The notes under the pieces: model-generated
Seen by the model: only the letters and a program-made list of their open reading frames with translations
Told to the model about the DNA's origin: nothing
Database searches by the model: none
Position numbers and translations under genes: made by a program
Part shown: positions 3,714 to 63,967 of the stretch, piece by piece
Layout of the letters: every line of letters begins with the position of its first letter
Position numbering within the stretch: position 1 is the stretch's first letter
NCBI GenBank assembly: GCA_040954595.2
Contig: CM082589.2
Coordinates: 8,316,232-8,380,231, forward strand
Origin: Balanoglossus misakiensis
Lineage: Eukaryota > Animalia > Hemichordata
Length of the DNA: 64,000 nucleotides
Direction: 5' to 3'

Positions 3714-4069
3714 AGGGACAAAGTCTCTCTCTGGCTGCCCTTTTGTCATTACAATTTCAGTAATTATGTTTGATACAAGACACTGTGAATGTTATTCTAC
3801 ATGTGGATATATAGTGAATCAACGTTCGACCACACACAACTTCCATCTCACTTGTAGACATGAGAGTGAAAATCTCACCAAATTGAATAATCGGTGTTTA
3901 CCATTAATTCATTTTGGCGAGATTTTTACTCTTGTATCCTACAAATTGGATGGAAGTTGTGTGAGGTTGAACGATGATTCACTATATATCCACATGTAGA
4001 ATAACATAAACATTGTCTTTTATCAAACATAATTAATGGGAAAAGGGCAGCGAGAGAGACTTTGTCCCT
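3714..4069. mobile_element. TTAA-targeting MITE (Kolobok-like, AG..CT termini)
   Basis: TTAA|AGGGACAAAGTCTCTCTC ... GAGAGAGACTTTGTCCCT|TTAA, with long internal inverted arms. Partial relatives at ~19190-19395 and 61829-62045. Confidence 0.75.
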
Positions 4070-10000: not shown

Positions 10001-11888
10001 ATAATTATCATAATTTATTTTCAAACTGTACTACTATCAGCCCATACGGATGTATGCACTGAACTATATACAAGTATTATAAACCCTAAGTATGAGTGTA
10101 TATGCAAGTTTATCCAGACAAATAATAATTATAACCTCTGCCATTGTAAACTACAATGAGAATGTTGCATTTCCTCTTTGAAACTTCATAAACAAAGCAT
10201 GATCTCATCCACTAAAACACATGGAAGTAAATGTACTGCACTGAGACACTACATTTTCATTTTTCATTGCAGTTTTTATAATTGCTGGAAATTTCAACTG
10301 TACTGATATTTCTTCACTTTTGAGATCTGAGATCTTTAAATATGAGAAAGACAGTTTGGTTTTAAGTAATTTAGCTAAATATAACTTTTGTTTTACCAAA
10401 AGTGGCCAAAATGGCATTTTTGTCTTGAATAGGTCAAGCAGACTGCTTTTATGGAATCAACACCATTTTTAACATACAATGGACTTCTCAAACCTTCCTT
10501 ACCTAAAATTCTGATTTCAACATTTTTTTCTAAGTGGAAGCAAACAATGAAGCAAAATAATCTTTCACATATGTGCACCACGTGTGATTCTTTTCATATT
10601 GTTTGTACTTTGCACCAGACAAGCCTTTGCCTGGTGCCTTTTTCTTTATGATTCAAATTGCATTAATTAAACCCAACAATGAAACCCCTGTTTTAGTAAG
10701 TTTTAAAAAATCGTGCTAATAAATAATACATATTTTTTCTTGAAAAAAAATATGATAAAAGCTACCATATATTTAAAACCCAGCTATGTAGAACTTCTCC
10801 ATCAAACCTATAAAAATGCATTGATATGCAAATTAGTTTTAAAGAACACTGCCCTAAATTACCAGAAAATGGCAGTGATATATTAATAGGGACAAGTTGC
10901 CGTAATAACAAAACCAGAGGGGCATTTAAACGTGTCTAGTAGCGAATAAATAATAAGTGAGGTGGATGTACTTACTACTGGGTCTGGGAGGAAGCTTGGG
11001 AGGGTTACCTCCATTTGTTGGGCTGTTTGGAGGTTCCAATGGCATGGGCTTCTTTGCACGGTCGATGATGGGTGGGACTGGTGCTTTCCCGTCGATTTTC
11101 GGATTTGGTAAAAGTTGTCCCGTCGGTCTCGACACCTGGCTCTTTGCGATGATGATAGCTTCAGCATTTAAATACTCTGCCTCGCCTGGTCGGTAAACTG
11201 TGGGTCTTTCATAATATTCCAAGTAGGGTATGCTGCACATTTCTCCAACTTCGATATTGGGCAGTTCGAACTTGTTGACGATGAGCTCGTAGTCGTCATC
11301 TTGCTCGGCGACCTGAAATTCAACTTCCACACTGAGAGTCATGATGCACATGAACCTTTTGCCGTTCACTTTGGTGCTGGCAATCAGGTATGTATCGGTC
11401 ACCTCTTTCTCCAAGGTGAAAATACTGTCCTGTCCGCCGAGTTCCTGCAGCATCTGATGAGTCGCTCTGTCGAAGTTCACAAACTTTGTTCTTACAGGAA
11501 GGGTGAAGTCGGTGAGAAGTTCATCTACTTTGTATTCGTTATCTGATCGAACCATATGAGCCTGTCTTCCTGTGGGGATAACTGCCAGAGTGCCCTGGAA
11601 ACTTTTCGGTATGGTGATTTTTTCATTTGTATTTCCGGGTCCAGTGCAAACAGACGCCAGTATTTTGTTCTCTCTGCGTATGCCGTGGACTTTGTAGACG
11701 TCGCCCGTGGAGAAAGAACTTGCATCGCTCACGCCGTAGATGCCTTCACATACCCGAACTATGTGTGGCAACGACTGCTCGTACTCCTTCACGAATGTCT
11801 CCGGATCGTAGTGTTCTTCGGACCATTCTAGCTGTTCCGCCAAAACCTCGTCCTCGTAGCTCCCCGGCTCTACTACAGCTCCAGCCAT
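7043..11888 (-). CDS. CABIT-domain, proline-rich, C-terminal SAM adaptor protein (GAREM/THEMIS-like), ~465 aa, 5 exons
   Basis: Exons 11888-10976, 9625-9563, 8969-8914, 8418-8299, 7288-7043, all GT-AG and phase-consistent (1,1,0,0). CABIT-like start (SLPHIVRVCEGIYG...ITIPKSFQG...FTLPVRTKF), PPKLPPRP, Tyr motifs DDYEL, YDNI and YENF, and SAM (MTVQQVATFL...FIENEVDGQMF...ELNITKLQAKKI). Confidence 0.82.
7370..7544. mobile_element. hAT-like MITE with CAGTGTTT termini
   Basis: CAGTGTTTC...GAAACACT(a) flanked by ATATAA on both sides (7364-7369 / 7545-7550). Related inverted copy at ~53906-54119. Confidence 0.55.
9196..9279. mobile_element. Small TAG..CTA foldback element (Academ-like MITE, degenerate)
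   Basis: TAGTCTATAATCCGGACTTGT ... ACAAGTCTGGATTCTAGACTA. No clean TSD. Confidence 0.4.
9975..10290 (+). repeat. Diverged copy of the TTAA element at 40160-41316 (empty-site paralog of a Crypton insertion)
   Basis: Aligns by eye to 40170-40263 joined directly to 40921-41170 (…GAACTATAtACAAGtATTAT|AAACCCTAA…TGATCTCATCCACT…CATGGAAGTAAATGTAC). Boundaries approximate. Confidence 0.7.
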
Positions 11889-12497
11889 TGTTGTTGTGTT
11901 GTTTATGACATGTACCCTGACATGCACCCTGGGTGTGTGAAAATGTCACGTACGGAGTGAGTGCGGCTAGCGCCATCCGCGCCGGATAGCTGCTGAAGGC
12001 CCGGCCAGATTAGCCTTACCTGGTACGGTCCCTAGCCTGGTCACCATGCATATACCCAGTGTGTTTTAGATAGACTCGCACACAAGCTACCTGGTCCCAA
12101 TCAATATCAATATCTTACAATCAATATCTGAATTGTTCAAGATCTGTTTACGTACGCAACGTCAGACTAGCAATTCCCTCATAGCTGATTTGGATATATG
12201 GCAAATTCAATACATTATCAATGAAAGAGATCTGAAATCAAAGATTAAAAGAAAGATACCATTCTAATCCCATAACACAAGATTATCCAAACTAGGCCTA
12301 AATTCGCGAAATGTATAAAAACAATTAAGAGGTGACTGAAAATTGACAATTTGATTCATAGGCCCCTTCTGATATTTCTAGTTTTAGGAAAGGCGTAAGC
12401 CTGCGGAAACAAGAATGGGAAACTTACATTAATTTTATTTGATAAAGCGACAAGTCAAAGAATTCCCTGGAAAATGATAGAAGTTCTTCTAAAATTA

Positions 12498-15045: not shown

Positions 15046-18000
15046 ATGTATGTATGTATGTATGTATGTATGTATGTATGTATGTATGTATGTATGTATG
15101 TATGTATGTATGTATGTATGTATGTATGTATGTATGTATGTATCAATGTATCAATGTATCTATGTATCTATCTATGTATCTATTTACCGTTATGCCACAC
15201 TAGCTGCAGGTCAAATACTCAATTGTCAGTATTTTTCAGTGGTTCAATTTACATTACACATACAGAGGCACACATACATCTCACTAACCTGCTAGGAAGA
15301 GCATAAGCATCGTGTCCAGAGTATCTAATACTAGGAGAGAGAAAAATCTGTTTTGTATCGAATCCATCAGGCTTGCGTTCTTCTGAGAAATGTCCTGGTT
15401 GCTCCCCTAACTGCCGGCCTTCCATTTCTATATCACCTGAAATTCAAAAGAATACATGGTTGAGACTAATGTGTCTTTCAGTATACTACACCGCACGAAA
15501 AAGTAAACTACAAAACAACAAAATAGATAAACCCATCTTTTTCTTAAATTTAATTTTCCCAGTGTTGCTCGCATTTCTCAAAACCATACAACGAAACACT
15601 TCGTCAACTTGTATATTGTATAGTGATAACAACATGCACTTTTACAGAAATTTTCTTTGCTTCTTAGAAATGCTAGATAGAGCCTTCTCACACTCCTGGC
15701 ATGCTGAGATTGTGGTATCAGAGAGTGAGAACAAATCGATCCCACACTCTCACAGAATGCAGTGGGTCATTTAAAAAAATCATCCGGTCACCCGTTCTTT
15801 TAACCTTCTATTGAGCCTACTGTGCATCAGAATTTACAGAAACAAATTCTTCACACACTTCTCACCTGGCATTAGTAGATCACCACATTCTAAAATTGGT
15901 TTGACAGCATTCAAACGAGTTCCATGGAATGCCACATGCCACTTTTCGAATACGTCCAAAGCGGGGGCTCTTCCCGACAGTCTGTTTTCGGAGAAGACAA
16001 AGATACTTCGTTAACATCATTAACTGTAAGAGATAATTGTCAGCGTATCACGGAAGCCAAATTTCCAGCATAAGTTAACAATATTGGCATCAATTATTTT
16101 TTTAAGTGTGATTCAATGTGGAGAGCTTTAACTTATGATCCGTATTCAAACTATTCTGAATCATCATGCTATTCCCACAAAACATCACATATTATGCTTT
16201 AATTTTGCGTGCCAAATGTAACTTTGGGGCATAGGGCATAACCCAAGTAAGCTTACATGGCCTAATTTGGTAAATATTAAAATGAATTCATAAATTACAT
16301 ATCTCGATAATCAAGTTGTGAATAATTAAACATTGTTACTATTAGTTTATCTCTTGATCGAAAACGAAAACATGTAGGCATATGTCCTATAATGTCAATG
16401 TATGCTTCAACTACCTCTTGACATCAGGGAATCAACAAACCTGGAGACTTTCAAAAGAAAACTGAAAACTCATATGTTCGAAAGAGCATACAGTGTGGTT
16501 TAACCATGAGCGTCATTGGGCAAAATTTCTTTTTGGATTTTGGCGCTATATAAACTTTGTTGATTGAATTATCAGACTGCCACATAAACAAGAACTTCAG
16601 AGGTGGGTGTCTCCGAATTTGCATCAATGGGCAATTCTACAGAGGCATATTGCTTCGTTTAAACGTAAAGTAGATTAGCATATTGTTTATATACAAAGTG
16701 CACATTGTTTAAATATATTATACTAATGACATACATGTATTTAATTGTGAATATTTAAAACTTACTTCAATGCAAACCGACACCAACCAATTGGTAGACC
16801 ATAATCTTTTGGCGGCTCACCGCGCGCGTAATAAAGGTCATTTCCTCGGACAATATGACAAGAATTGCAATAACACATATCATGTGCTGGCGAGAATAAT
16901 GCATCTGGAATGGAATAAATGGGCAGATACTTTAAATAAGACAAGACAGCCCAAGAAATAACATATTGCTTCGGAGTACTGAGATGCTGTTGAAAATGCC
17001 ATTTGCTTATTTTAACGATACATGTTAGTGTCGTCATGGCATCCATTTTAGAAGCTTGTTATTAAACGATTTCCTTTCTGTTCTGGTGGACCGCTCTCCG
17101 TTCTCTATTTACACTTTAAGGATGATATTCTGATAAGCTCTCTCCCCGAAAACTTTGATCTTGTGGGGAACAGTTAATTCCAAGTAGACTGCAGTTGATA
17201 ATTTTAAAAGAAGTAGAAAACACAATTCAGCTTAGGCCCAAAAAAATAATATGTGCTGTTCCGATTACACGGTTTTCAAAAATAGGGTAGGTAGGTATAG
17301 GGAATTTTTCATTTTTTTAATTTCTCTGGCCGCCGTAGTGTAGAAGAATGACGTCATAGTTCTTGCGTGATGCGCGCAATTTTCATAAATTTTGTATATT
17401 TGACATCGTTATTTTTACTTCCGGGTATACGAAGCTCTATAATGTTTAGGGTCGGTGGGCTTAAATTAGGGTAGGTCAGCAATCTGATTAAAATCAGATG
17501 TAGGGAACGGCGACTTTGTTTTTTTTCATGCTGTCGGGACAGCATAAAAAACACGTCGCCGTTCCCTACATCTGATTTTAATCAGATTGGGTAGGTCAGG
17601 TAATCGGAACAGCACATATTTTTTGGCCTCATAACTTTTAACGCCAATGATGTCTTGAATCGTCGACATACCTCTTGATATTCGCAGCGAAGGGCGGAAG
17701 CGCCGAATATATATAAAAGACCCTTTCGAACTGTATAAATGAAATTGTGAGTGAATGTCTGATTGTTTCAGTATTTATGACTCGGAAATGGATTCTTTTT
17801 TATTCGATAATCCCCAGCGCGGGGAAGTGAGTAACGAAGGTTGCAAAGTCGCACAAAAGTGTTCCTTTGAGTGACCATATTTCCATCTGAAGTATCGCGG
17901 AATATATTAATTTCTAAATACATGAAATAATATACACAGGTTCTGGTTGTATACGTTTCGGATACCAATTTTAACCGATATTCGTTGTGTTTTTCCCATG

Positions 18001-21000
18001 ATTTTAACATGTAACTCGTCAACAGTGGAAACGACATTGAAGACCTGTCATCTGACTCTGTGGAAACTTTCTGCTAGCATTTCCCCTGCTTGCCGTCATT
18101 GTGACACGTTTCGTTGTTTATAAAATTATAAATCCGTCTTTTAAGACGCAAAGCAAACACTCCCAGTACATAAGCAATGTGATCTTACCGGAATGACGTA
18201 TTGGGGATCTTAGTAACATTGTCGCTCTCTCTGCCGCTTGTTGTACGGCCAGTGTGTCACTCTTTTCAAGTGTAGACAGGGTTTCCAAGACATCATATTT
18301 TGTCGCTATGATCTTTCGCGCAGATTGAAGTTTGCAAAGTGTGGCGATGGTGTTGATGGCGCACTCTTGCTCAATGGGAATCTTTGATCCCGTTAGCTTC
18401 TGCAACAATGGAACGATCCCTTCGTCTACCAAAGTCGCCTTGTTTCTGTCGTTGATGGCGAGGCTAGCGAGGCCAACAACGATCTCGAAGACCCGGTACC
18501 CTTTACATTGTGACGATTTGTCATCCATTTTTGCATCGAGAATACGGAGGAGGTGTTGTATGATACTGCGATCAGCTTCCATTACGTTTTTCGCGCCACT
18601 CTCGCTTAGGCCGATATGTGACAGAGTAAGAAGGGCCACTGTTTTGGCGTCCATGTTGTCGTCTGGTGTTTTTATGTACGGCGTGATCTTCCGTATAGCG
18701 CTGTGTTTATGGTAGATTGGTCTGTTGTCGGCAGCCATGGAACACTTGTGAAGTACGACCAGTGAGCCCAAAATTAACATTTGAATTTTCTGTCGGCAAA
18801 TGATGCAAACTAGATTACATGGTCAATTTGATTAACCATAATTTAATCGTGGAAGATTGCAAATACCCCTATAGAGATAGTACCCTGTAAAGTGAATATG
18901 TGGACCCCTTTGACCTAAGTTAACCCCATTATAGGCTAGCCCATAGAGCTAGAAATCTGTTTTTGTTGGACAAGGACCAGTATGGGACCAAAAGGTATTG
19001 GCAAAGTTTTGGGTGACCTTGGGCCGACCCTCGGCCTATACTCCATATAATTATCTCAGCATCAAGACCATACACTGAGATTTGTCATTTTCAGCGATGA
19101 AACATCTAGTAGTATCTTATCCGTTATTTTGTAAGTACCTAATTCTAGGCTTACAAATACAACTGGGAGTATGTTCATTTGTAAGGCATTGAGAGTAAAT
19201 ATCTCGCCAAAATGAATAAACGGTAAACACTGATTATTTATTTCAGCGAGTTTTTGCACTCTCGTGTCTACACGTGGGATGGAAGTTGCGTGTGGTTGAA
19301 CGTTGATTCACTATATATCCATATGTAGAATAACATAAATGGTGTTTTGTATCAAACATAATTAATGGAAAAAGGGCAGCGAGAGGGACACTTTAAAATG
19401 TAACTAACCTCATTGCTGGCATAGCTGTCGCGATATTTCTCAAGATTGTCCAACAAATCGCACAAGAGGCCACATTGACCACACTGCCTGGCCATTTTTA
19501 AACTAACATCAGAGCAATTCGCTAATGCAGAAAGAACTACATTGATGGCATTCCATTTGCGTTTCGCGGAGTCTTCTTCGTTCATCAGATCACCAAGGAT
19601 GGATTTCAGCTTTTCAGCTACACCAAGGTTTGCGAGGAGATCACCGAACTGGTGATTGGCGAACAGAGAGGGCGGCTGTGTCAGTAACAGATCCACCAGC
19701 CTTATGGTATGGTCCATGTCAAGTTTGGCAAAGTCCAGCAGTACCAAAGCAAACTTTCTCGTCTTCATAATCACAGAATCTGGATCCGTTTCGTAGTTAG
19801 TTAAGATGTTCGGTTGATCGAAATCTGTGATCGACAACTTTTCTTCCTCGTAATCCCTTTCTGAAAATGTCAAAGAATTCATCAAAAGTCTGGTAATAGT
19901 TCGAAATAGCGCCCCTAATGCTCAGCGAATAACTGTTTTCAAAATCACACAAATATATATTAGTCTTACATAAATGGTTCATAAATTCAACAACTTAATA
20001 AGCATAATGCAAAACAGTTATCCGTTAATGTTAGAGATAAATCTGACCTCCGGTGACTTACAGAATCCATTTTAACTTCCTGCTTATCACATATAAAACG
20101 CAACGTGGGTTGACTCGATACATTTAGCATCTCACTGGACCTCATCCCAAAAAGTTATATTGACAAAACTCTTTCTTTCAAGAACAAAACGCAACTAAAT
20201 GTACTTAAGACAACACAATGATTCTCACAGTGATCTCCGTTACTGTAGGATCATCTTCCAAGTGACTTTCGTACTGTGCCCAAAGAAATACCTTCATATT
20301 CATCCAAAAACTATTCTCGTCATTGGCCATCAGTGTAGTGGCTGACAGGTGTACTATAACTATATTTTCTAATTTGACGTTTTATTTCAATGTCTATCGC
20401 CGTTCAGAAATATTGAACATAAATGCTCACCGCAAATAGTGACCCCGTCAGTTCTGCCAAATAAATCGACCACGCAGTAGAGCTCGTCTGTATTTTTAAC
20501 GCCAAGTTGCCGTAAATCCATTGTGCAAACTTCATGTCCATTCAGACGCAGCTGAAGGACGCCCTCTTCCGATGTCGCCATGCCAATTGTATCGCCGATC
20601 TGAGAATTAAAGAAGGATAATTCATTAGAAGTATCCCTCGGCAATAACCGGAACGAGTCGTTACTGTTGTTTTCTGAGAAATTGCTTGACCGTTCAAAAC
20701 TTTCGGAATTCTGATCACCGTATTTGGCCATTGTAGCAATAGACGTTGACTGTCCAACTCTTCACTGCCTAATCTTTCTACTTGTGACGTAACCAGTGAG
20801 AACAATAAAGGGCTTTCTCACGTGCAATGATTAGGGCGCCCTTTTCGGGATTATAAAAGTTGGCAAACATTTCTTATCAGCGACTCAAATAGTTTTGCAT
20901 TCACATGTGTATAAAAGGGACGGGATCACCGCACTCAATGCGTCCACAGCAGAGTGGCTAAAGGTCACAATGGCGGATTCAGTGATGTGTTTACTGTATA

Positions 21001-22952: not shown

Positions 22953-25603
22953 CAGTTCTATCGTGTTCCTCAGACCAATTTCCTGTGAATTGTTATTTCA
23001 ATATTTATCATTTTGCTCGCATGTGTTCATATATAGTTGTACATGTAACGTGTATACTGTCCAATGTAGTGGGGAGTAAGAAAGATAATCCACGTACAGA
23101 CCCCCCCCCCCCCAAATGCATTTCACGGCACTACTTTCGAAGTTGGAGTTCGTTTGTCACACAGAAATTGATTTGGCGAATTCAATGTTGAGTGAGTAGC
23201 AGTGGTTATAAGCTAATGGGGGGGGGGGGGAGGGTCGCCCGCAAACGCAAAAACACATTTGACACACATCTCGACACCCCCCCCCCCTCCACAAGTCGCT
23301 TTACACCTGTCGTGGCCCTTATTCCGTGTCCCATTGAGAGTACGGAGCATATTGCAAGACTATTAACATAATGCGAACTAACTGATGTCAGAATGCAAAT
23401 GTTAACCAAACATAGGATAAAAATAGAATTGTGCATTACATTATTCCGTTTCCTGAACAATGTGAAAGAACATTGTTTTTTTACGTCGTGTAAATATTTA
23501 TCAGGGCGTGTATTTTATCAGAAAACTAAACACGGTAACGATTTTGGGGCAACTTACTTCCGTGTTCGGAATGACCTCATTATAGCAGCATACACGCACA
23601 AGAGTCAACAGGTGCCAGCAAATAACTACATGTATGACCCAATAGCGCCTACAGTTTCTTATATTATAACCTGACAGTACGGCATACTGACCGGTATAAA
23701 ATTGCTGAGACATTGTTTTCTTGGGAGTTTCGAAGCACCTATTTCGTTTTACGAAGCATCTCGTCTCACGTGGTCTGTTCATGATTGTAAATATGCATGA
23801 ATTTTGATGGAAATGACTAATTTATCAGCAAGCAACTTAAAAACAAACAGTGGAAATCTACCATAACGAAGAGTTAATTGATTACAGACTACTGCCAAAT
23901 ACGTATGTATTTTCCCGGTAAAATCTATACAACAACAATAGAGATCCGGCAGTTTGGTATACCGCTAAGTGGGCGTCGATTGCACGAACCTTCAGGTTTG
24001 CAGGCTTACTCCGCCTATCTTAAGCAAACTTAGACTCCCAATTAAGGGTTTTTTCAGTGCATGACTTCATAACTGGCACCTCTTTCGACCTGAGTCTGAC
24101 GTCACCATGGTATCGCAGAATTCGTCGGACACACTTACCTTGCACGTCTTGCACAGACTTTTCACATGAATAATAACGGTATGTGAAGTTTGGGTCCTTA
24201 AAATGGTGTGCGACCTCTAACCTTATTTTGGACAACCATCGAACGATGATTCATTGCAAATTCAACAAAGTGTAAATAAAGTACTTGAAGTATATAGCTT
24301 GTGTACATTCAGTACTTGCATGTACGGGGCCTGGCGGTTTCAGTAAATATTGGGCTGAGTAATTGTGGCTGGGTGACATTTATTTCCCAAACTCTCCCAA
24401 GTATAGGCTGTTGCTCCAAGTGGAATTGTGGCGTGGCTGTCAGAATCGCCAGCATTAAAATAACACGTGTCGAGACACAGAAGTTTAATCTGGACACTTT
24501 CCACTGATGTACCAGAAAATAACCTATATGAAGTAGTTTTGAGTTAGCGTGGTGAGTGACGCAGCATGGTAACCACATTGACCACAATCAACATGTTAAC
24601 CGCAGAAGCCACATTCGACAAACAAAACAAACACAGATCAATTTCGCTTCAAAAAGCTTGTACTTGTTCCACAAGTACAGTGATGGGGCAGTTTCAAGTG
24701 CTGCAGTGATGTAAGCATTTTCTTTCGTCGAAAGACACTTTAATATAATGAGGATATGGCGACAATCAGGGCACCGGGCATTGCAGATTTGAAGCACAGC
24801 GTTGTTTACAAAAATTTACGTTGTTGACATATTGACTTATATATTTTTTTTAACTTCCACAAGAATTGGCATACTTACTGCACTGATCGCTTTTTCCATC
24901 TTAAAGTGATCCGACACCTTCCTTGTAGAGCGATTCTAATAAAATATTTGTGAAAAACATGAGTGATTTGCGTCGTTTTTATTCACTTTCACTTATCGCG
25001 CAGCAGCGTAGCGTCGATCTCGATATGCAGTGTGACGTCACAGACTAGTCACCAGTAGCAGACGCCACCGTGCGCACGCTAACGAACACAGACAGTTGAC
25101 ATGGCTGGCTGCCTCGCAAGTGGGAGCAAAAACAGAGTTGGGAAAAACACGGCGAAAGGTTTTATAAAAGTTCCCGACCCTTCGGTGGACAGTCAAAATG
25201 CAAATCGAGCTGAAAAACAGCAAAAATTGTCGAAACAGCCGGGGCTCCTGTTTTCCTTTGATCACCATATGACGAAACCGAATTTTTGGCACTGTAAATC
25301 AAAACTCTGATCGGAAGAAAGTAGTGTGGCGGAAATAGGCCTACTAGTGAACACTGTTTTTGTCGCGTACCCAAGCTGTGAATGCATCGCAAAACCATTT
25401 CCAAAGACAAAAACGACCACGCGATATGGAGTTTTCAAACGAAGATATCGTCGGATTTTTGTACGAACCCGAATACAGCAGCGATGAGATTGGAGGCGAC
25501 TCAAGTGAAACTGATTCCAATAGTACAGAGGCAAGTGTAGACAGCAAAGACGATCGAGAAGAGAGATCGGCTTCGTCAGAATTTTCAAAAATAAATTCAC
25601 TAT

Positions 25604-26710
25604 GTATGTATATATATCGTATGACTAACGAGGCGATATCCATAATATCAACCGAGGACGAAGTCCGAGGTTGATATTATGGATGACGCCGAGGTAGTCA
25701 TACGATATTTAACATACACAACGAGTGAAAGGTGCAGGCCCCTCTACAAGTAAACACCCCTCAACCGACAATACAGTGTTTAAAAATCTTTTGTATAGAC
25801 CCTAAGCGGTTGATATCAGCCTAACTTTCAAAATGGTATGGTCCTACTTACGGAAAGTATTTAATTATTCAGCGTTTTGCACCTGGGATGCATATATTAC
25901 CTAGTTCAACCAATTATTGTTTAGTAATAAGCTCACACGCAATGTTTCTTCCAATTGTATTGGCTGTGCATGTTTTACACATGCACAATGGCATATATTA
26001 TAATATAAATCCACGGCCACGAGGCACAATTTCTTTCTACCTGAACGTGTCATAGTGGCAGCATGGCGCATGAGGTGTATCCCGATTTTTCTGATATCTC
26101 TGATGAAGAGTTAATTGAAGCCTCACAAGCAGCAGAATATTTGAACGAGCTTGGCTTCGAAAATATGGATATAGCAGTCAGCAGCATTCCTTCGGTGAGT
26201 CACGAATTCTTTTATTCATTCCGCCATTTTCACCTTTTTATCGTGTACGTTGTCGTTGAACATGCACGTAAGACTGTATATTGAATCATTTTTTATTTCG
26301 TTAAAGGACATTCCCAGAAGGCGGTTTGCTGACCCAGTGTCGGATTCCTGCGTACAGGGGGTTGCAAAAATTCCATTCCCAAGAATACTCAACGCCAGAA
26401 TATGTGGGCGCTACGGACTTTCAACGAATGGGCCATGGCCCGAAATGTTACATTTTGTAGTTTTGTATGCATTTTTATTTGGAGGTAGGTCGTGATATTG
26501 TCTCGAGGCGTAGCCGAGAGTCAATATCACGACCGTACCGCCAAATATTCATTTTCGAGGCATGATGGCTGAAATTTCACGAGACGAAGTCGAGTGAAAT
26601 TTCTGCTATCATGCCGAGAGTTCAATAGGTTGATATCACCCCACCCCAAAAATATCACCTCAAAATGAGGTTGCTCTCTAAAATATCAACCGCTAAATCT
26701 ATTGTACTAT
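25604..26710 (+). mobile_element. Non-autonomous Crypton-like element with hairpins at both ends
   Basis: Flanked by the direct repeat ACTAT (25599-25603 / 26706-26710). Hairpins at 25603-25718, 26476-26547 and 26552-26622. Contains a truncated Crypton-like N-terminal ORF. Confidence 0.65.
26063..26447 (+). pseudogene. Truncated, intron-containing Crypton/DUF3504-type N-terminal fragment
   Basis: Exon 26063-26194 (GTGAGT donor), then from ~26307 DIPRRRFADPVSD..., a 1-nt frameshift, then SIPKNTQRQNMWALRTFNEWAMARN. This matches the RF…P.NT…WA…F.EW…RN motif of Crypton-derived proteins. Confidence 0.6.
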
Positions 26711-27813
26711 CTGTGACGAGTTGTGTATACCATTTTAAAACTCAATAGAATTCCAGAATGATTTCTTTAATTTTTTTGTGTGAAGATCTTTTATAGAACT
26801 GCTATTTGTAACATCGCGGGGTGCTTCGATGCTGGTATGCGCATGTCTATAGGTATCGTATAATCCCTGGCTAAAATAGCTGAACCCGGAGTAACCTGTA
26901 AGCAGCCTGATGTGGCTCGTAGAGAGTGGTTCGTTCAAACACGGTCACTGGAGTGACCGTGGTTCAAAAGCCAGGGAAGCCAGCACCCAATACACAGACG
27001 GGCAGTAGTACCATGTAGAGCATTGTGGCCCAGTTTTTGCAATTGCTTTACCAACATGTAGCCGCTAGTTTTCATAGATAATATAGATCGGAACTATCTT
27101 CAGATCGATTTCATGGACATTTGAAGGAAAATAACTAAAACGTGACACTTAGGCCTACTGAAATATGTCTAGAAAATTCTCTCGTATTAGCTTAACATAT
27201 GCACGCAAAACCTCAATAGCTGTAACCCCTCACCACATACACTACGTATCAAACCTGTAAAGTTTAATTTGATGCAAATTGAAGTTTTAAATTAGCATAT
27301 CATTGCGACACGTAAGCATGAATATTTAGAGTAACACCTGTCAAGCGTGGGCGATCTTGTAAGGCCCAGTACATGCAATAGGGCGGTCTAGAACTACCTG
27401 CCCACGACATGATTCATTTAGGAAGAGGATTGGCCAACCAAATTTCACAGTCAGCAATGAAGAGTAAGCCTCCTTTGATAAAATTTTGTTCGTTCATTTT
27501 GCTGAATCGTTGTGTAAAACGACGTCTTCATGATACACAAAGCTCCAATGGTGACAATGTCTGTGCATGGGGGGTCGTGTTTTAACTGCAAATATTCTAT
27601 CAGTATAGTAGCTATATATGGGGAAAAGACAAGGGACATAATGCACACAAATGAAATGTTTGCCAAAAGATAACTACGCACTTATTTTGTTTTATTGAGA
27701 TTTTATTTCGAGAAACAGTGAAGCATGGTTCAGTTTGTTTAAATCAACAACTTTAAAGGCGACTAACTAACAGAAATCGTGTCTATTTCCATGCACCCAT
27801 GGTTTCGACAAAA

Positions 27814-29622: not shown

Positions 29623-29707
29623 TAGTCTGGTTCCCTGCCCCAATCCCACCGCTGGCTGCGCTACGCTCGCGCAGCCAGCGGTGGGATTGGGGCAGGGAAC
29701 CAGACTA
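29623..29707. mobile_element. 85-bp near-perfect palindromic MITE, TAG..CTA termini, 9-bp TSD (AcademH-like)
   Basis: TAGTCTGGTTCCCTGCCCCAATCCCACCGCTGGCTGCGC…GCGCAGCCAGCGGTGGGATTGGGGCAGGGAACCAGACTA, TSD ATGGAGGGG (29614-29622 / 29708-29716). Confidence 0.85.
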
Positions 29708-30859: not shown

Positions 30860-31190
30860 TATATTACCATGGCTTGTGCGTCGCATTTTAATTGGTCGAG
30901 ATGAACGAGGTCACTGACCACAGATACTCAGTAATGGTTTGTTTACATGCCCGTAAATCCGAGTAGTAATATTAGCAAACAGTTCAGTGAATACAACATT
31001 TTGCGTAATACAAGTTCCGGGGCCCCTTGTCTTTTGCGTGGGACATTTTCGTAAATTTTGACAGTTTTCTTGAGTTCGTTGGCGATATAATGGAAATAAC
31101 CGACTCCGCCGGGCTCGAGGAAAGTCAAAATTCATGGGCTCGGGGAAGCCTGGCCCATGAATTTTTGGCTTTCCCCTCGCCCTCGCTCAT
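30860..31190 (+). mobile_element. Miniature Crypton-like hairpin element (degenerate)
   Basis: TATTACC start, ATTGGTCGAGA motif as in the Crypton 5' region, and a terminal hairpin at 31110-31185 with CTCG repeated in both arms. Confidence 0.5.
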
Positions 31191-40159: not shown

Positions 40160-41316
40160 GGCACGTAACCTGTAACTTTTTGGATAATTTTCATAATTTT
40201 TGTTCACACTGCACTACCATTAGTCCATGCTGATGAACGCAGTGAACTATACACAAGCATTATTACACCTCACGTATTATACCATATTCGTGATTGGCTG
40301 AGACGCGCTCACGTGATATAGAAAAAAAAGTGATATAACATGGCTAGAGTTGATAAAGCCCTGTCGCGTGCGCTGATATTGCCCGCTGGGTTGTTTTGTG
40401 TTCTGCGCGCGACTTCTGCGCGTTCCAAACTGTCGTTCAATGGCTTCCTCCACGATCAGTCAACTCCCGTATCTATGGCTTCAAAGCGACACATAGGCTT
40501 AACACCTGTTCAACTGGACGATATTTTACCACAAACGGACAGTAAATACAACAAAATCGCAACCAACAATGCAGTATTTTCAAAATAATCTAAGTTCGAA
40601 GTAGGTATCGTATAATTCTTGGAAGATCGAGACATTTTACATTCTCAGCAACGTACGACATATGGACGCGAGTCTACATGCTACATGCTGCAGTGTATGT
40701 ACGTTCAAATGTTCGGCGTAATAAAATTAATAACACATGATGCTCGGGCAACATCACGATTTGAAGCCTGCCCTCGGGCTGGTGATCTCTGACCACAATA
40801 TTGATGATACCCTCGCCTGCGGCTCGGGCATCATCAATATTGTAGTCAGAGATCACCATCCCTCGTGCAGGCTTCAAATCGTGATATTGCCCTCGCTATC
40901 ATGTGTTATTATTTAATTATAAACCCTAAATATGAGTACATATGCAAGTTTTAACCAGATAAATAATAAAGCTTTGCCGCAAGCGATTATGGCCGCCACT
41001 GTGGGAAAATGCAAGAAACAATGAAAATGTTGCATTTCCGGTTATGAAACTTCATAAACAAAACATGATCTCATCCACTTGAGCTCATGGAAGTAAATGT
41101 ACACCACTGAGACATCAGATTTTCATTTTTCATTGCAATATTGCACTTTTTTTAAAATTGCAGGAATTTTCGTTTTTCTTTAATTTTTGGCCATTTATCA
41201 TAAATAAGTGTTGAGCTTGATATATTATCATGAAATGTCATTTAATAGACATAATTAAAAGCATATATGAGATTATTTAAAACTTTCATTTTTTATCCAG
41301 TTGCAGCTTACGTGCC
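40160..41316. mobile_element. TTAA-targeting non-autonomous element (Kolobok-like) hosting a nested Crypton derivative
   Basis: TTAA|GGCACGTAAcCTGtAACT…AGTTGCAGCTTACGTGCC|TTTA. Uninterrupted paralog at ~9975-10290. Confidence 0.7.
40264..40920 (+). mobile_element. Internally deleted non-autonomous copy of the adjacent Crypton element
   Basis: 40261-40670 closely matches 41401-41800 (including MASKRH..QLDDIL). It then jumps to the 3' end, with a complete ~184-bp hairpin (40728-40911). ATTAT at both junctions. Confidence 0.88.
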
Positions 41317-41400
41317 TTTAGGCTTCTTACGAATGAAATAAAACGAACGACAATATAGGTTTATGCTATAGTAACGAATGGAAATATGTTATCCCATATT

Positions 41401-43183
41401 TATTACACCTCACGTATTATGTCGTATTCGTGATTGGCTGAGACGCGCTCACGTGACATAGAGAAAAAAGTGATATAACATGGCTAGAGTTGATAAAGCC
41501 CTGTCGCGTGCGCTGATATAGCCCGCTGGGTTGTTTTTGTGTTCTGCGCACCATTTCTGCGCATCAACAAATTGTCGTTCACAACAAACCCTTTCCCTTT
41601 AACGCACCACCACTATGGCTTCAAAACGACACGCTGATTTGACACCAGCTCAACTGGATGATATTTTACTTCAAATGGACAGCAAAAACACGAGAGTAGC
41701 GACCAACAATGCAGTATCCGTTTTCCGAAATTATCTCAGTGCCAAGTACGGATATAGTCACCGGGAGATCGAGACCTTCACAGCGACGACTCTGGACGCA
41801 GCCCTGACTACATTCTACGCTGAAGTGCGAACTCAGAAAGGAGAACTATATACGAACAAGTCTCTTCAATCACTTCGATACGGCATTCAGCGATTTTTCA
41901 ATCAGCCACCAATGCGCCGAAATTTCGATATAGTTGATGGCGATGAGTTTTCCAATAGCCGGAAGATGTTTAGTGCAGTTTGCAAGCGACTGAAAAGCCA
42001 GGGCAAAGGAAATGTTGTACACAAACCGGCCATACTCCCGGGCGATCTCGCTAAACTAGCCACCTACTTCAGTCGCTCGAATACCGACGCAACTTTACTT
42101 CTGCACAAGGTATGGTTCGATATCATGTTGTATTTTTGTCGCCGTGGTAGAGAAGGGCAGCGTGACCTCCGTCCTGAAAACTTTCAGGTTAACACGGACG
42201 ACCGTGGGAATAAGTACGTGATCCAAGTTGGGAGCGAGGTGACAAAAAACCACCAATATGATGACGATGGTGTGTCGGGCGGAATCATGTATGCCAACCC
42301 CACCAATTTATCTCGGTGCCCCGTTCGTACCTACGAACTGTATATTTCGAAGATAAACCGTAAATGCGACGCACTATTTCAACGACCACGCGATAACTAC
42401 AGTAGTGACGACGCGCTGTGGTACGAGAACAAACCACTCGGCAAAAATACATTATCGGCGATGATGGCCACTATATCTGCAGCAGCAGAATTAAGTCAAC
42501 GCTACACAAATCATTGTATTCGTGCCACGTCCATCACACTTCTTAGCGAATCCGGCTTTAACAATAGGCACATCATGAGTGTGAGCCGCCATCGAAACGA
42601 AGGGAGCATCTCCTCCTATGTCAGGGATACGTCAATCCAGCAGAAGAAATTGATGGCAGAAACCCTTTCATCCGCAACAATGACACCATCTGCTGCTGAC
42701 GAAACTGGTGACCACGGTGCAGCCATCGCAACATCAAGCCCCCCACAACAAGCACATCGCTCACCACTGTCATCCATCATTTCGCAGCCTGCTTTCAGTG
42801 GTGTGGCCCAGCCAAATATTAATATACCCGCACCCAAATCAGCTGCAGCATCCCTGTTTGCAGGTGCAACGATCACAGGAGGAAATTTTAACATTTTTCT
42901 TGGACAAAAACAATGACAGTATTTATCTTTTGTGAAATATGCCCAGTACGTTTATTGTTGGTTTATTGTTGTTTCGTGTTTGGCCATTAAACTGTTGTGG
43001 TAATATAAATCCTGACTGTGTGATATTGTCTTGTATGCTGTGTGAATGTTCGGTGTAATAAAATAAATAACACATGATAGCGAGGGCAATATCACAATTT
43101 GTTGCCTGCCCAAGGGTTGGTGACCATGACCGAAATATTGATGATGCCCGAGCCGAACCTCGCTATCATGTGTTATTATTTAA
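41401..43183 (+). mobile_element. Crypton-type tyrosine-recombinase DNA transposon, apparently full length
   Basis: Ends defined by homology with 40261-40916. Inner inverted repeat TTTATTACACC/GGTGTAATAAA, 3' hairpin remnant at 43066-43178, single YR ORF, no RT. Confidence 0.85.
41615..42916 (+). CDS. Crypton/DUF3504-type tyrosine recombinase, 433 aa, intronless and intact
   Basis: Catalytic R-K-HxxR-H-Y set: FCRRGREGQRDL, VTKNHQ, TNHCIRAT, VSRHRNEGSISSY. Also the family motifs FYAEVRTQKGELY…SLRYGIQRF, RCPVRTYELY and WYENKPLGKNTL. Confidence 0.93.
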   Translation: MASKRHADLTPAQLDDILLQMDSKNTRVATNNAVSVFRNYLSAKYGYSHREIETFTATTLDAALTTFYAEVRTQKGELYTNKSLQSLRYGIQRFFNQPPMRRNFDIVDGDEFSNSRKMFSAVCKRLKSQGKGNVVHKPAILPGDLAKLATYFSRSNTDATLLLHKVWFDIMLYFCRRGREGQRDLRPENFQVNTDDRGNKYVIQVGSEVTKNHQYDDDGVSGGIMYANPTNLSRCPVRTYELYISKINRKCDALFQRPRDNYSSDDALWYENKPLGKNTLSAMMATISAAAELSQRYTNHCIRATSITLLSESGFNNRHIMSVSRHRNEGSISSYVRDTSIQQKKLMAETLSSATMTPSAADETGDHGAAIATSSPPQQAHRSPLSSIISQPAFSGVAQPNINIPAPKSAAASLFAGATITGGNFNIFLGQKQ

Positions 43184-49881: not shown

Positions 49882-50133
49882 TATTCAATTACACTGACAT
49901 AAGGGATATGTCTCACAATACCAATAATACACTGTAACCAATGCTTTAGCCAAGATAAAATGAAAAACAAGCTTATTTATAGAGTTAAAATATCTTACGT
50001 CAAGTGAATGGTCAATTACAAACTTATGCAACAAAATACTGAATTATTAACAAACCCTGGATGTCCCATACCAGTATGGCAAAAAGGCAATGCTTTGGCG
50101 CATAGCTGACCAATAGAATTGTACCATACTATG

Positions 50134-50551
50134 AGGTAATTACGAAAATACCGCAAAGTATGCACGAGGACATGAGCGCCAACTAATGTCCGAGTGCATA
50201 CTTTGCGGTATTTTCGTAATAACCTTATTATTATACATTATATTATACCAGTATATTGATGGTGTAAATCACGATATTTGATTGGTCGAGACACGACACG
50301 TGACCGTGATATATTAGCCATATACCACAGTCATATATCATAGTTAAAGAAAATGCCTTTTTAAAATGTTTTATGCAAAGTTTCAATATACTGGCATAAT
50401 ATAATAGCAATAAAACACCCCCAGCCATGGTATACCACTCGATTTTGACCAGTTCAACTCCATATACGCACTCGCTATCGCTCGTGCGTATATGTCGTGA
50501 ACTGGTCAAAATCTCGTGATATACCATGGCTGGGGGTGTTTTATTGCTTAA
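50134..50551 (+). mobile_element. Miniature Crypton-like element(s) with two long hairpins
   Basis: Hairpins 50134-50225 and 50406-50548. Inner IR TATTATACC/GGCATAATA. The motif GATTGGTCGAGACACGACACGTGAC resembles the Crypton 5' GATTGGCTGAGACGCGCTCACGTGAC. Confidence 0.65.
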
Positions 50552-52852
50552 TTTTACAACTCCGTTAGTTCTTGTGTTGCATGGTACCTGGCTTTCAAAA
50601 CGCCCAAAATGCTGATACAATTGATCCTAAACCGCTCAGTTGACTAGGTGAGCAGCCATCTTTCTTTTTTGTTAACGTGCGTTGGAGTGGGGGTGTCTTG
50701 AAACTGTCCGCATAACAGTGAATACCTGTACATAGTGGGTACCGTTCTGTACGGCTCTTTTAGTGCACGCTTAATTCTATTGTTCTCGGTGCCAGATGTA
50801 TAATAATGACTTATAAACAACCCAGACCAGTGTCTCTATTCACAATAAATACTGATATATCCAGTGGTAGGTCAAAGGTCACCAAATGGGAAAGTATAAG
50901 AAATGACCCATTCAAGTGTGCCATATACTTCATCAGTTATAATCCATCTCATACTGATCAATCCCCAACACAAACCCACTCTGTAAGGATTCTTTTAACA
51001 TTAGATACATGTCTATACAAAATTATAGGCAAATGGATGAATAAATCTGATAGAGCATATTCCTTGGGCCCCGCAAGCAAGCAAGCAAAAAAAAAAAACA
51101 ATTCCAAACAACTCTCAAAGTGGAATGTAAAACACAAAACTGTACAGGTCAATGACAATGGAAATGTCTCATACACAGTCAGGACGTAAGTGGGGTAATT
51201 AAACAGCAGGGGATCATGCAATGCAAACACTTGAACTGGCCAGTAACGTTTGAATTGCCATTTGCATACAGTTTTTCAACTTTTTTTCACAACGAAAGTT
51301 AAGCAACTTGCAACCCATTTCTGACAATTATTTCACCCCAGGCACATTACTGGTACTATGAGTGTACTACATGTGATTTTTCATGAAGTTTTATCGAGAA
51401 GAATTTCTTTACTTCCACTGACAAAATTGTGATCACGAAATTCAAAGTGACCTTGAAGTTAAAAAATCAAAAAAAAAATATCAGCCATACCCACACAAAA
51501 ATTAACCCCCTCAGGTTTTAGAAACATTATTAAACTCCTCTATTCATAATTTTGACATGAATATATCCATGCCGAGAGTCAAGGACCACAATTTACAGTG
51601 CCATAGGTCAGTCCTGAGAAGTCAGTCAGCGTGGGTAGTGTATAGACTCCGTATGTAATATGCTAATGAGAGATAACGACGCCTTGAAAAGGAAGCCATT
51701 ACGTCATGGGTTAACATGCGTTGACCTACTTCAATGCATACACATATGGCAAACACGGCTGTACTCGTCGATGGCGAAGGCAATTTTTACACCGTCATTA
51801 CTCCACAACGGAGCGGCTCACACTATTATAATTTCACGGTAACTTAGTTCAATATCTTCCTAACCTACCCAATTTTTTTCAAGACAAGAAATCTTTGCCG
51901 AGAGTCAAGGACCACAATTTAAACCAACATACCGAAACTGTCTTTCTCGGGAACGCGTCGTTAAAACTTCACTGACTATGGTGTTTCATACACGTCTTAG
52001 AAAAATGGGTGCACTACGATCACTTGTAGTACCGAAAATCTCCGTTTGAAAATTTTTCGAACTGGCCGTAACTGCCACTCAGCGACGTTCACATTCAAAT
52101 AGATCTCTTTGATCTCACCGCCGTAATTACCCCACTTACGTCCTGACTGTACATGTGATAACTGAATCCCCCTACACATGCCATTTGATTTCAGTACACT
52201 GTTCTCATAAGATTTCAATTCTGCGCCGACATAAAAGTGGGTTTTCATGAAGAGGCTTCTGTTTTCATACAACCAATTGGTCACTTTCATGACCTCTCTA
52301 CGTGACCTTTACATCCTGGCATTTTGCTGGTATTTCAAGGTCACATAGAGTTCATGAAAGTGGCCCTCTGAAGATGGGGAAAAAATCTACGCTTTTATCA
52401 CCCAAAAATTGAAATTGTTTTTGCTCGATGTGAAGAATTGATGCTTCCTGCTTTACATGCAATTGATGGAAAGAGTCTGTGCAGCAGGAAAACCAAATGG
52501 AAAACCGAATGTCAACATGCCATTTATGTGCATTTATCACAAAAAAAAATGTTTTTCAGACTCAGATAACAATGCAGCTAGTGAAATATGAGAACGCTAA
52601 AATTAATCACTGCGTTACAGTTGCCTCTAATGATATCGGGAAATTTCCTGTCGCGAATTTTCCCGATTTACAGTATTTTTTGCAAAGGGTCAAAACATAG
52701 ATTCGACCACAAAATGCACTATATTTCCTGGCTGTGTGTTGTGTGTTCGTGTGAACACATACGGCTGTCTGTTCACAATATCTGCTGTCATACAGATTTT
52801 TCTGTACAATGTAGTTTCATTTGGCTTTCTTATACTAGCGAAATCAAATTAA

Positions 52853-61715: not shown

Positions 61716-63967
61716 ATGGAAGAAAGTGACAGACAGAACAAAGATACAGACTCTACTAAGGCTGCCAGCAAGGTCAGTACTTACAGGTCGTCTTGTTCAT
61801 ACTGGTACATTGTGAGAGCATCTTTTAAAGGGACAAAGTCTCTCTCTCTCACTGCCGTTTTTTCATTAATTATGTTTGATACAAGACACTGTTTATATTA
61901 TTCTACATGTGGATATATAGTGAATCAACGTTCGACCACACACAACTTCCATACAGTTTGTAGGATATGAGAGTAAAAATCCCGCCAAAATGAATAAATG
62001 GTAAACACTGATTATTCATTTTGGTGAGTTTTTAACTCTTGTCCCTTTTTAACCTCACCAGCAATTGCAACCAGGCTGTCTCTCAGTATCTTTGTGTAGG
62101 GTATCAACTATGGTTTCTTGCTCTACTACGCTGGAAGCCCCAATAATTCAAAATAAAAAAAAATTCAAGTGAAGGAATCTGTGATCGAGCAAGCGCATTT
62201 CAGAAGTTCCAGAATGAGCTCAGGGGTGTAGAACATCAACATCTCAGCATCACCTGATGCGTGAGGTCAAGACGCGTTCAATATGCAAATCACTTCATGG
62301 TGGTGTCTGAAAACTAAGAAGTCCCATAGTGGCCAATTTATTGTTCATCAAACACGATCGGAATATGTGTATAATTATAAGGTTATTCACAAAATACCAA
62401 GATTTCTGTCCTTGTACACTGTACACTTCAGTACTGTCCTTGATACTGTACATCTCAGAAAATACCTCCGCTGAATGATGTACTCCGACATAAATCCCAG
62501 TATTTTGTGAATAACCTTATAATATCAGCATGTTTGACATAGCAGAAGAACACTGTTACTTAAATAATATTGAACAGTTGACAAAATATAATGTCTCTTT
62601 ATGATTCAAGATTGACAAATTGTTCTTTGTTAATCTTGTAATTTTTTTTACAGAAACGAACCAAACCAAGATCAGTATTTTTATGGGGTGTTCAAGAAGT
62701 TACAAGATGGCTGAGACGTCGCTGTCCTACATACTATGGTCTCTATGGTAACATCTTTGCTGAACATGAAATTTCAGGTAATTGTCTTCCTCACTGGTCC
62801 ATTGGAGATAATATTCTGCGGAAAATTATTATTTTTATATGCTTTTATTTCGGACTCATGGTCAATAATGGTGAAAAATATACATAGTTTGGTAAGCTAT
62901 TATTAACTCCCGGTTCTTAAACATGGCAAAAATCGGCCTAATTGTGTTGACTACGTGAGATTTTTATCACTCGCCAAGTTAGCAAAACCTTATATACAGA
63001 TATAAGGTAGGGAGGATTCTGTAGCCTTACTTTCCACTTAACTAATATGCCTGACAAGTGACAGCCCTGGATTACTAAGCTTAGTATCTGTCCATACTAT
63101 AAATCTTTGAATTACATGTAAATTTACCAATACATGAACTTATGTACAGTTTGTGTATATTTTCACTATATGTTCAGGTCGAGCTTTGGTTCATCTAGAT
63201 ACAAGGAAATTAGAACAGATGGGGATACACAATCCAGACCACAGGTAATTCCCAAAAATCATACGCTCCTAAGCCTCTAGAGCTGCCACTTTTTGCGTTA
63301 TTTTCATGATTTTATCTTCCGACCCAAAATTGGTCCATCTAAATAAGCTTACTGATACAGGTATGTACACCTTATCGATGCCCAAATTTGACTGAATGTT
63401 GCAATTTGAACACGCTATATATTAAACAGGTGCCACACCGATTTAATCAGCTTCCATACAAACAGTACGCTGCTATCGCGGTATGTGTCACCAAGAGATG
63501 TCGAACTGATGCAAATACATGTAATGTGGCTTAATGGGGAGAATTTTCGAGGATAGCGAATATATTTGAAGTATTTTATTGTGGAAATAATATATGTGAA
63601 ATTTGGCAGCTATAGGGGCATTAATAATTTCATACCAGCAAACAAGTATATCATTTAGTTTTACTGATTGGAATGTAAAAGAAAGTTAACACATACAACC
63701 ACTGAACCACATTTCCTATTCATGCATACTGGTGTAATCATATTCAAGTCCATATGTGTTGTGATATAATGCTGGTGTATTTTCTGTGTAATGCCTAAAT
63801 GGGACCAAAGTACTATGTTATTTATTAATTCAATAGGCTCCAATAGGGAATAGATCCCTGACAATGGCTTGTTTTAACATCTTTCAGAACTGAGCTGCTC
63901 AATCAAATATTAAAACTGAAAATAAAACATGAACAACTGGAGCTGAAGGTATTGCAGAAGCAGTCCA
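61716..63967 (+). CDS. Aveugle/SAMD10/SAMD12-like single-SAM protein (3' end outside window)
   Basis: Exons 61716-61772, 62654-62777, 63178-63244, 63888-63967, GT-AG and in phase: …KPRSVFLWGVQEVTRWLRRRCP..Y..IFAEHEISGRALVHLDTRKLEQMGIHNPDHRTELLNQILKLKIKHE. Confidence 0.85.
62375..62522. repeat. Isolated hairpin related to the 50134-50225 hairpin
   Basis: TTATAAGGTTATTCACAAAATAC…GTATTTTGTGAATAACCTTATAA. Confidence 0.6.
63272..63620. mobile_element. Kolobok-like MITE family 3, inverted copy
   Basis: Reverse-complement homolog of 32815-33066 with an extra internal segment. Confidence 0.72.

Follow-up and report, generated by a model that had tools for sequence, protein, structure and literature searches.

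Why does a long hairpin in an animal genome carry mispaired bases that form a regular pattern on only one of its strands, which element does it belong to, and could a recombinase act on that strand after folding? These questions are raised by the hairpin at 40728-40911 of a 64-kb stretch of Balanoglossus misakiensis DNA (the window), for which a first-pass annotation had proposed an attC-like recombination system that works on folded single-stranded DNA. The window holds few genes and many repeats, and its best protein match is to the acorn worm Ptychodera flava (79% identity). Host exons lie at 10926-11927 and 18118-18780 (both on the minus strand); they gave a CABIT domain (E = 4e-14) and a match of ARM-repeat-like type. 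At 3758-4038, 19190-19389, and 61861-62039 there is a further repeat family, probably a MITE, whose terminal inverted repeats are 100 bp long and which lacks GA/GA loops. The features that concern us here are compiled in Table 1.

Table 1. Crypton-related features of the window
Feature	Position	Strand	Remarks
Likely second-lineage Crypton derivative	25600..26728	+	hairpin 25603-25718 at 5' end; inner hairpins 26476-26547 and 26559-26615
Decayed hairpin	31111..31182		one TC/TC loop, GAA tip on opposite strand; no element body identified
CryptonA non-autonomous derivative	40260..40915	+	656 bp; TTA at both ends (40260-62, 40913-15)
5' end word	40260..40274	+	partner of pre-hairpin word 40711..40725
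Recombinase gene 5' remnant inside derivative, broken	40473..40590	+	71% identity to P0001 residues 1-34; stop codons after
Pre-hairpin word	40711..40725	-	inverse complement of derivative's 5' end; long-range stem with TGAG/CGAA tandem G·A on minus strand
Terminal hairpin	40728..40911	-	minus strand: three CGAG/CGAG tandem G·A loops, GCC-GCA-GGC tip
Full-length CryptonA copy	41400..43182	+	1783 bp, TTA...TTA; same 3' junction as derivative
Tyrosine recombinase ORF	41615..42916	+	433 aa; DUF3504 and Phage_integrase; R177, K211, H300, R303, H326, Y335
Pre-hairpin word and rearranged hairpin of full copy	43048..43182	+	left arm replaced by complement of right arm
Older Crypton-type mini-element	50125..50806	-	hairpin 50131-50228, code on plus strand; 3' end uncertain; bounds from own inverted repeat only
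Crypton-type mini-element	50238..50550	+	313 bp, TTA...TTA; 22-nt split inverted repeat; hairpin 50406-50548, code on minus strand

The arms of the hairpin extend from about 40728 to 40817 and from 40821 to 40911, and the loop between them (40818-40820) reads TGC on the plus strand and GCA on the minus strand. All three of the CTCG/CTCG pairings described earlier (CGAG/CGAG on the minus strand) were found, with TC opposite TC, that is, GA/GA on the minus strand, at 40744-45/40893-94, 40774-75/40863-64, and 40813-14/40824-25. The three pairs share a single coordinate sum and are therefore in exact register. The GCC-GCA-GGC tip on the minus strand was found as well.

The hairpin forms the 3' end of 40260-40915, a CryptonA copy that has no intact gene. 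This insertion breaks an older repeat, the paralog of which at 9988-10295 is uninterrupted, and contigs from three runs of one sample link 40258 to 40916, the joint of an empty site across the insertion. Contigs with varied loose ends were seen at both borders, before 40260 in 15 contigs and behind 40915 in 16 and 17 contigs. Contig depth over the derivative exceeds that of the ORF core and of the right flank, although depth is no copy number, and the joints listed for the derivative included none of the head-to-tail or "goes back" type. Empty-site joints, diverse flanks, and 99%-identical relatives at different sites indicate mobility, a multicopy state, and non-autonomous derivatives, as in CryptonA. 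The annotation had linked the hairpin to the recombinase encoded at 41615-42916; it is indeed a Crypton end, but its owner is the derivative just upstream and not the copy with the ORF. Derivative and full-length copy have the 5' region, the start of the gene (broken in the derivative), and the 3' junction in common, and the first 138 nt of the copy are 96% identical to the derivative. ATTAT on both sides of the derivative could be taken for a target-site duplication of 4-5 bp; this was dismissed, as other insertions have only TTA in common. At the right junction (40916-40919), 4 nt (ATTA) go beyond what the empty repeat predicts if TTA alone is shared.

The recombinase matches PF12012 (E = 7.5e-15) and PF00589 (E = 3.2e-6), and the catalytic residues R177, H300, R303, and Y335 are intact. 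Cre is the nearest match to its predicted structure (pLDDT 82, with low confidence for the C-terminal 70 aa), at Z 17.8 and an rmsd of 3.9 for 287 residues, with IntI at Z 13.2, and the medaka protein P0100 matches it at 35% identity. Further Pfam families (GCR1_C, another C-terminal domain, a reverse transcriptase) were not found in the protein, and a second long ORF was not found within 41400-43182. The element encodes no replication protein. No relatives of either window recombinase turned up in viral contigs, nor of the second-lineage recombinase (the only one of the two scanned there) in prokaryote genomes. The end of the full-length copy has decayed: the right arm of its hairpin (43062-43182) is mostly gone. 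One contig spans 43072-43400 with 3 differences. A parvovirus-like flip/flop as the origin of this reversed hairpin was rejected, because its last 29 nt are the ordinary right arm and not a flipped left arm; it is also contradicted by the relatives, which keep a single polarity.

A motif-blind scan of the window gave 13 long hairpins. The seven named by the first-pass annotation carry GA/GA or TC/TC loops, and the remaining six carry none. The claim that the code recurs in 25603-25718, 26476-26547, 26552-26622, 50134-50225, 50406-50548, and 31110-31185 thus holds in that each has at least one loop, but not throughout, because 31111-31182 is strand-discordant. The hairpin at 25603-25718 has two GA/GA loops on the plus strand and a GAA tip, just as described, and 26476-26547 has a single GA/GA loop and a GTA tip. 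In 26552-26622, one clean loop and the GAA tip stood (26559-26615), whereas the outer pair that had been claimed falls outside the aligned stem. Three TC/TC loops occur in 50406-50548, together with a GATA tetraloop on the minus strand, and one clean loop in 50131-50228, the tip of which has decayed. Two other hairpins with stems of 35-39 bp, perfect or nearly so, are without the code (29623-29707 and 17480-17589).

The 313-bp element 50238-50550 is nested in 50125-50806 and directly adjoins the pre-hairpin word of its host element; a copy at locus L021 is likewise placed after the 3' end of its own family. Crypton element ends may be preferred insertion targets. Two Crypton families have ATTGG and CACGTGA words close to their 5' ends (40290-40315, 41430-41455, and 50278-50305), which we take to resemble a CCAAT box and an E-box.

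A second Crypton lineage is likely represented by a derivative at 25600-26728, with bounds that we infer from one copy. Here, 26063-26450 is the 5' fragment of another DUF3504 recombinase (70-81% identity to P0122 over two aligned pieces), and three coded hairpins lie around it, the largest one upstream, all with the code on the plus strand, which is the sense strand of the gene. Furthermore, 25714-25727 pairs with 26715-26728 by 9 pairs and a CGAG/CGAG loop, as did 19 of 20000 random zones. If 25600-26728 is a single element, both lineages have the code on the strand that starts from the hairpin end, whatever the direction of the gene. The sense-strand position in this lineage, albeit from a single inferred element (n = 1), ties the code to element ends rather than to transcription. 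The element has an extra 12-nt inverted repeat (25806-25817/26683-26694), from which the word GGTTGATAT recurs in hairpin 25603-25718.

In metagenome contigs, 416 stretches encode relatives of the recombinase, and the best 80 of the 416, to which the following counts refer, form 46 families at 80% nucleotide identity. A hairpin lies at most 1 kb 3' of the gene in 14 of the 17 families with at least 1 kb of downstream sequence; in the other three none was detected. With at least 600 bp available downstream, the count was 16/29 families. Upstream of the gene, a hairpin was found in 3/21. We compared 17 hairpins, the best one from each of 16 families and that of the window, with the strand fixed by the gene and not by the motif. 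Their antisense strands hold 47 two-base loops, of which 32 are GA/GA and none is TC/TC; without the window hairpin, GA/GA accounts for 29 of 44. Hence, the strand specificity noticed in the window is conserved over families, physically within tyrosine-recombinase Crypton elements. The context is pyrimidine-GA-purine in 60/64 cases of this best-80 set (closing pairs CGAG 44, CGAA 8, TGAG 8), and tips of the form C(GNA|GTTA)G occur in 15/17 hairpins on the code strand and in 0/17 on the other. The tip match is off-centre or weak in 3 of those 15 (L006, L012, L072), and L018 and L075 are misses. The next commonest loop is AA/GC (5/47), in which GC faces AA on the code strand at the spacing expected for GA/GA; the GC/AA variant was found in the hairpins of L022, L026, L040, and L072. 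Single mismatches are without significant strand bias (G·T 17 versus A·C 10, p = 0.25), and 17 hairpins elsewhere in the same loci have 5 two-base loops, none of them GA/GA or TC/TC. In viral sequences, 121 matches to one tip motif (about 790 in total by estimate) included no long stem, the best pairing at 12 of 20 flanking positions, and a scan of bacterial promoters remained at chance level.

The 17 families form 8 lineages at <55% protein identity and are not all independent, but every lineage has at least one GA/GA loop. That unrelated arms share the code, as first noticed in the window, is borne out by a median identity of 0.42 between arms and 41% between proteins of the compared families. 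Between related families, 9-10 of 45 pairs are altered on both sides while the loop positions stay constant; compensatory changes in palindromes may, though, arise selection-free by copying from arm to arm. Selection on the fold of one strand is well supported by these data. That the loops arose by neutral decay of terminal palindromes, or as an artefact of assembly, is scarcely credible. Palindromes are liable to template switching and mis-assembly, and some of the metagenome contigs look chimeric across copies; however, simulated neutral decay of the 17 hairpins leaves 0.02 GA/GA loops per set on the fixed strand against the 32 seen, in independent datasets and in read-derived contigs, which refutes this explanation unless the alignments are wrong.

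The distance from the first to the second GA/GA loop is often 19-21 nt, or about two helical turns (L006, L022, L028, L036, L040, L072, and others). In the window hairpin, with GA/GA loops at positions 3, 42, and 72, the second position of this spacing is skipped. The loops limit perfect stem runs to about 20 bp in many families. Such a cap would suit a fold that serves the host or mere persistence, in which mismatches spare the palindrome from deletion or sensing and G·A is the cheapest mismatch for one strand. The decayed ends in which one arm was copied onto the other, as in the full copy at 43062-43182 and in L006, where the outer arm was overwritten, fit this idea too. We nevertheless hold it to be improbable: it needs a separate reason for the existence of the palindrome, it predicts no fixed polarity toward the element end where 32 to 0 was seen, and it leaves the DNA-type tip loops unaccounted for.

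Does the structure act as DNA or as RNA? The premises of the annotation, sheared CGAG/CGAG pairs and stable GNA triloops, are upheld by published work: NMR shows antiparallel CGAG to form two sheared G·A pairs flanked by G:C pairs, in agreement with work on the pyrimidine-GA-purine context (PMC10085684), and GNA and GNNA mini-hairpins, including GTTA, are very stable in DNA (PMC13037366). For GCGAAAGC, the RNA form melts at 39°C, compared to 76.5°C (PMC13037366). Loops of the GNA/GTTA type being far more stable in DNA than in RNA, the structure seems to act as DNA. That it functions as RNA (in a 3' UTR or an antisense transcript, for instance) is quite improbable in our view. RNA folding energies do favor the code strand in 14/17 hairpins. 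Tandem G·A is stable in RNA too, and folding parameters model sheared tandems poorly, so the energies are not our main evidence. The Rfam scan of the window gave 0 matches at gathering score, and relative to the gene, the code lies on the antisense strand in one lineage and on the sense strand in the other. AATAAA sits within the pre-hairpin word, and the mRNA may therefore stop ahead of the hairpin.

Copies of the same family, inserted at different sites, served to define the ends of the elements. Of 23 distinct 5' junctions, 21 have the triplet TTA and 2 have ATA; at the 3' end the triplet is TTA in 14/14 distinct junctions, which were located with a motif that ends in TTA; L075 ends in TATA instead of TTA. 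Both ends have just these 3 nt in common. In all eight elements studied, a word at the hairpin base is inversely complementary to the first 12 nt of the element, with 9-12 of 12 matches, a score that no zone of the body equals; five of the eight are independent tests, as the 5' end of L075 and two window mini-elements were placed by this repeat itself. Joining of the ends in silico lengthens the stem past a small asymmetric bulge in the predicted folds of the eight elements. Pairing of the 5' end with the word beside the hairpin base thus suggests that the joined strand folds into a bulged structure with two half-sites. A TGAG/CGAA tandem G·A on the code strand prolongs the long-range stem in both copies of the window family; it is missing from all 7 related loci examined. 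At the target, the left flanks have A at -8 in 20/23 (p = 9e-7, one of 16 positions tested) and the right flanks T at +2 in 10/14; left and right flanks were left unpaired because those from the metagenome may derive from different copies. The two positions are symmetric about 9 nt, which would fit the fold's long arm rather than the 7-nt duplex junction. Both insertions of the window family itself lack A at -8. One tandem junction was found, in L021.

Taken together, the hairpin is a conserved end structure of CryptonA, selected in one strand to fold as DNA, and probably a site for the element's own tyrosine recombinase. The presence of one-strand G·A loops and tips in so many unrelated relatives makes it likely that the recombinase cuts a folded single strand, and we lean, with somewhat less assurance, toward animal CryptonA being a eukaryotic case of single-strand transposition, in which a Cre-like enzyme moves a folded strand that is picked by the G·A/GNA code. 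In our model, the code strand would be exposed by replication or cruciform extrusion. The exposed strand, with its ends joined, would fold and present the inverted half-sites GGTGTAA and TGTGTTA, separated by 7 nt along one arm and by 9 nt along the other. Cleavage of the code strand by the recombinase would fall just 5' of TAA, and this one strand would be exchanged with an AT-rich duplex target; host replication or repair would complete the insertion, in the manner of CTXphi attP(+) and attC. With the G·A loops, the code-strand stem would stay fully stacked and the opposite strand would have T·C mismatches; hence, only one strand would be a good substrate, and the duplex would not be a perfect, unstable palindrome. 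Cleavage by tyrosine recombinases leaves a 3'-phosphotyrosine, and the strand with the 5'-OH is swapped (PMC3458562); ligation requires base pairs beside the cut (PMC3442271). Only on the code strand is the shared triplet immediately 3' of a half-site, which would make the code strand the one that is exchanged. Whereas the extrahelical bases of attC are contacted by the enzyme, the G·A loops are at least 17 bp away from the presumed cut.

The published model for Cryptons is a duplex circle (PMC3212892), and the recombinase might act on its junction, possibly by one exchange as in VGJphi, with the fold serving for second-strand priming, as a copy-out end, or for protection of a single-stranded circle. 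The duplex junction does place two imperfect inverted half-sites 7 bp apart, a normal core-site spacing, and VGJphi integrates from duplex DNA by a single exchange (PMC3442271). Mini-hairpins of this kind occur at priming and promoter sites of single-stranded DNA and are nuclease-resistant (PMC13037366), and a loop spacing of 19-21 nt, far from the cut, would suit a spacing-sensitive host protein. Left unexplained by this proposal are the second 5' word in fixed register at the hairpin base, which is sometimes paired via tandem G·A, and the 9-nt symmetry of the target. We therefore consider it unlikely, yet the most serious competitor of folded-strand cutting.

How does cutting of a folded strand by the CryptonA recombinase compare to known systems? 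In CTXphi attP(+), a substrate of XerC/D, separated inverted sites also fold in one strand with an unpaired overlap (PMC3442271). One strand is exchanged there, and homology is required only beside the cut (PMC3442271); the ends here share 3 nt, which would also fit a single exchange in duplex or a homology-independent route. CTXphi relies on the host's XerC/D, its own replication protein for single-stranded DNA, and one fixed target, and the available text of PMC3442271 mentions no G·A code. Here, in contrast, the enzyme is encoded by the element, no source of single-stranded DNA is encoded, and the targets are loose and AT-rich. The attC site of integrons is likewise an imperfect palindrome at the 3' end of its unit (57-141 bp, compared to about 90-215 bp here), with one strand favored and more information in structure than in sequence (PMC3458562). 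It has extrahelical bases and a variable tip, whereas here the tandem G·A loops are symmetric, the mini-hairpin tip is fixed, and the far end of the element completes the site (PMC3458562 for attC). An integron system proper was excluded, since the region has no cassette array and the recombinase model is closer to Cre than to IntI, and so were R and L boxes with extrahelical bases, the marks here being 2x2 loops of symmetric form and, at the junction, a single small bulge. Thus, what survives of the attC-like proposal is the principle, in that the inverted sites are predicted to be completed only on folding; the likeness does not extend to the enzyme, which is Cre-like.

IS200/IS605 elements have strand-specific subterminal hairpins. 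They too transpose as single strands (they are named in PMC3458562), but with an HUH enzyme and not a tyrosine recombinase; HUH-type hairpin ends as in Helitrons or IS200/IS605 were discarded for this locus because the linked enzyme is a tyrosine recombinase. SE-6945 and SE-6283 are tyrosine-recombinase elements that circularize one specific strand; they are bacterial, have four genes, and have no coded terminal hairpin in the abstract of PMC9345347. Cutting of a folded strand is a route known from bacteria, and it likely operates in this animal Crypton.

With a single DUF3504 ORF, a length of about 2 kb, no C-terminal domain, many non-autonomous derivatives, and a marine invertebrate host, the family belongs to CryptonA (PMC3212892). 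The 3-nt TTA repeat, the split inverted repeat, and the coded terminal hairpin depart from CryptonA as published; the first two probably extend its description and do not define a different family. Eulor6 is palindromic. Eulor5 and Eulor6 are CryptonA relics (PMC5753468), and fungal Glomhopper is named as a near Crypton system (PMC13465315). In the available text of Kojima and Jurka (2011), animal Cryptons have no terminal repeats, and two medaka CryptonA rows are given as "n.d." (PMC3212892). The strings "hairpin" and "palindrom" are absent from the main texts of PMC3212892, PMC5753468, and PMC13465315, and among titles and abstract openings, with Repbase/Dfam notes and subscription papers outside the scope, we found no published account of a coded Crypton hairpin.

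In sum, the ends of animal Cryptons, formerly reported as featureless, can now be described as exact substrates, with a defined strand, a predicted cut at TAA, 3 nt of homology, and a loose target. If our model is true, the mechanism of integrons and CTXphi would extend into animal genomes, and sheared G·A tandems and GNA mini-hairpins, hitherto mostly subjects of the test tube, would have a natural genetic role. It would also suggest a small recombinase able to insert single-stranded DNA, and it would account for many of the unclassified palindromic repeats of invertebrates.
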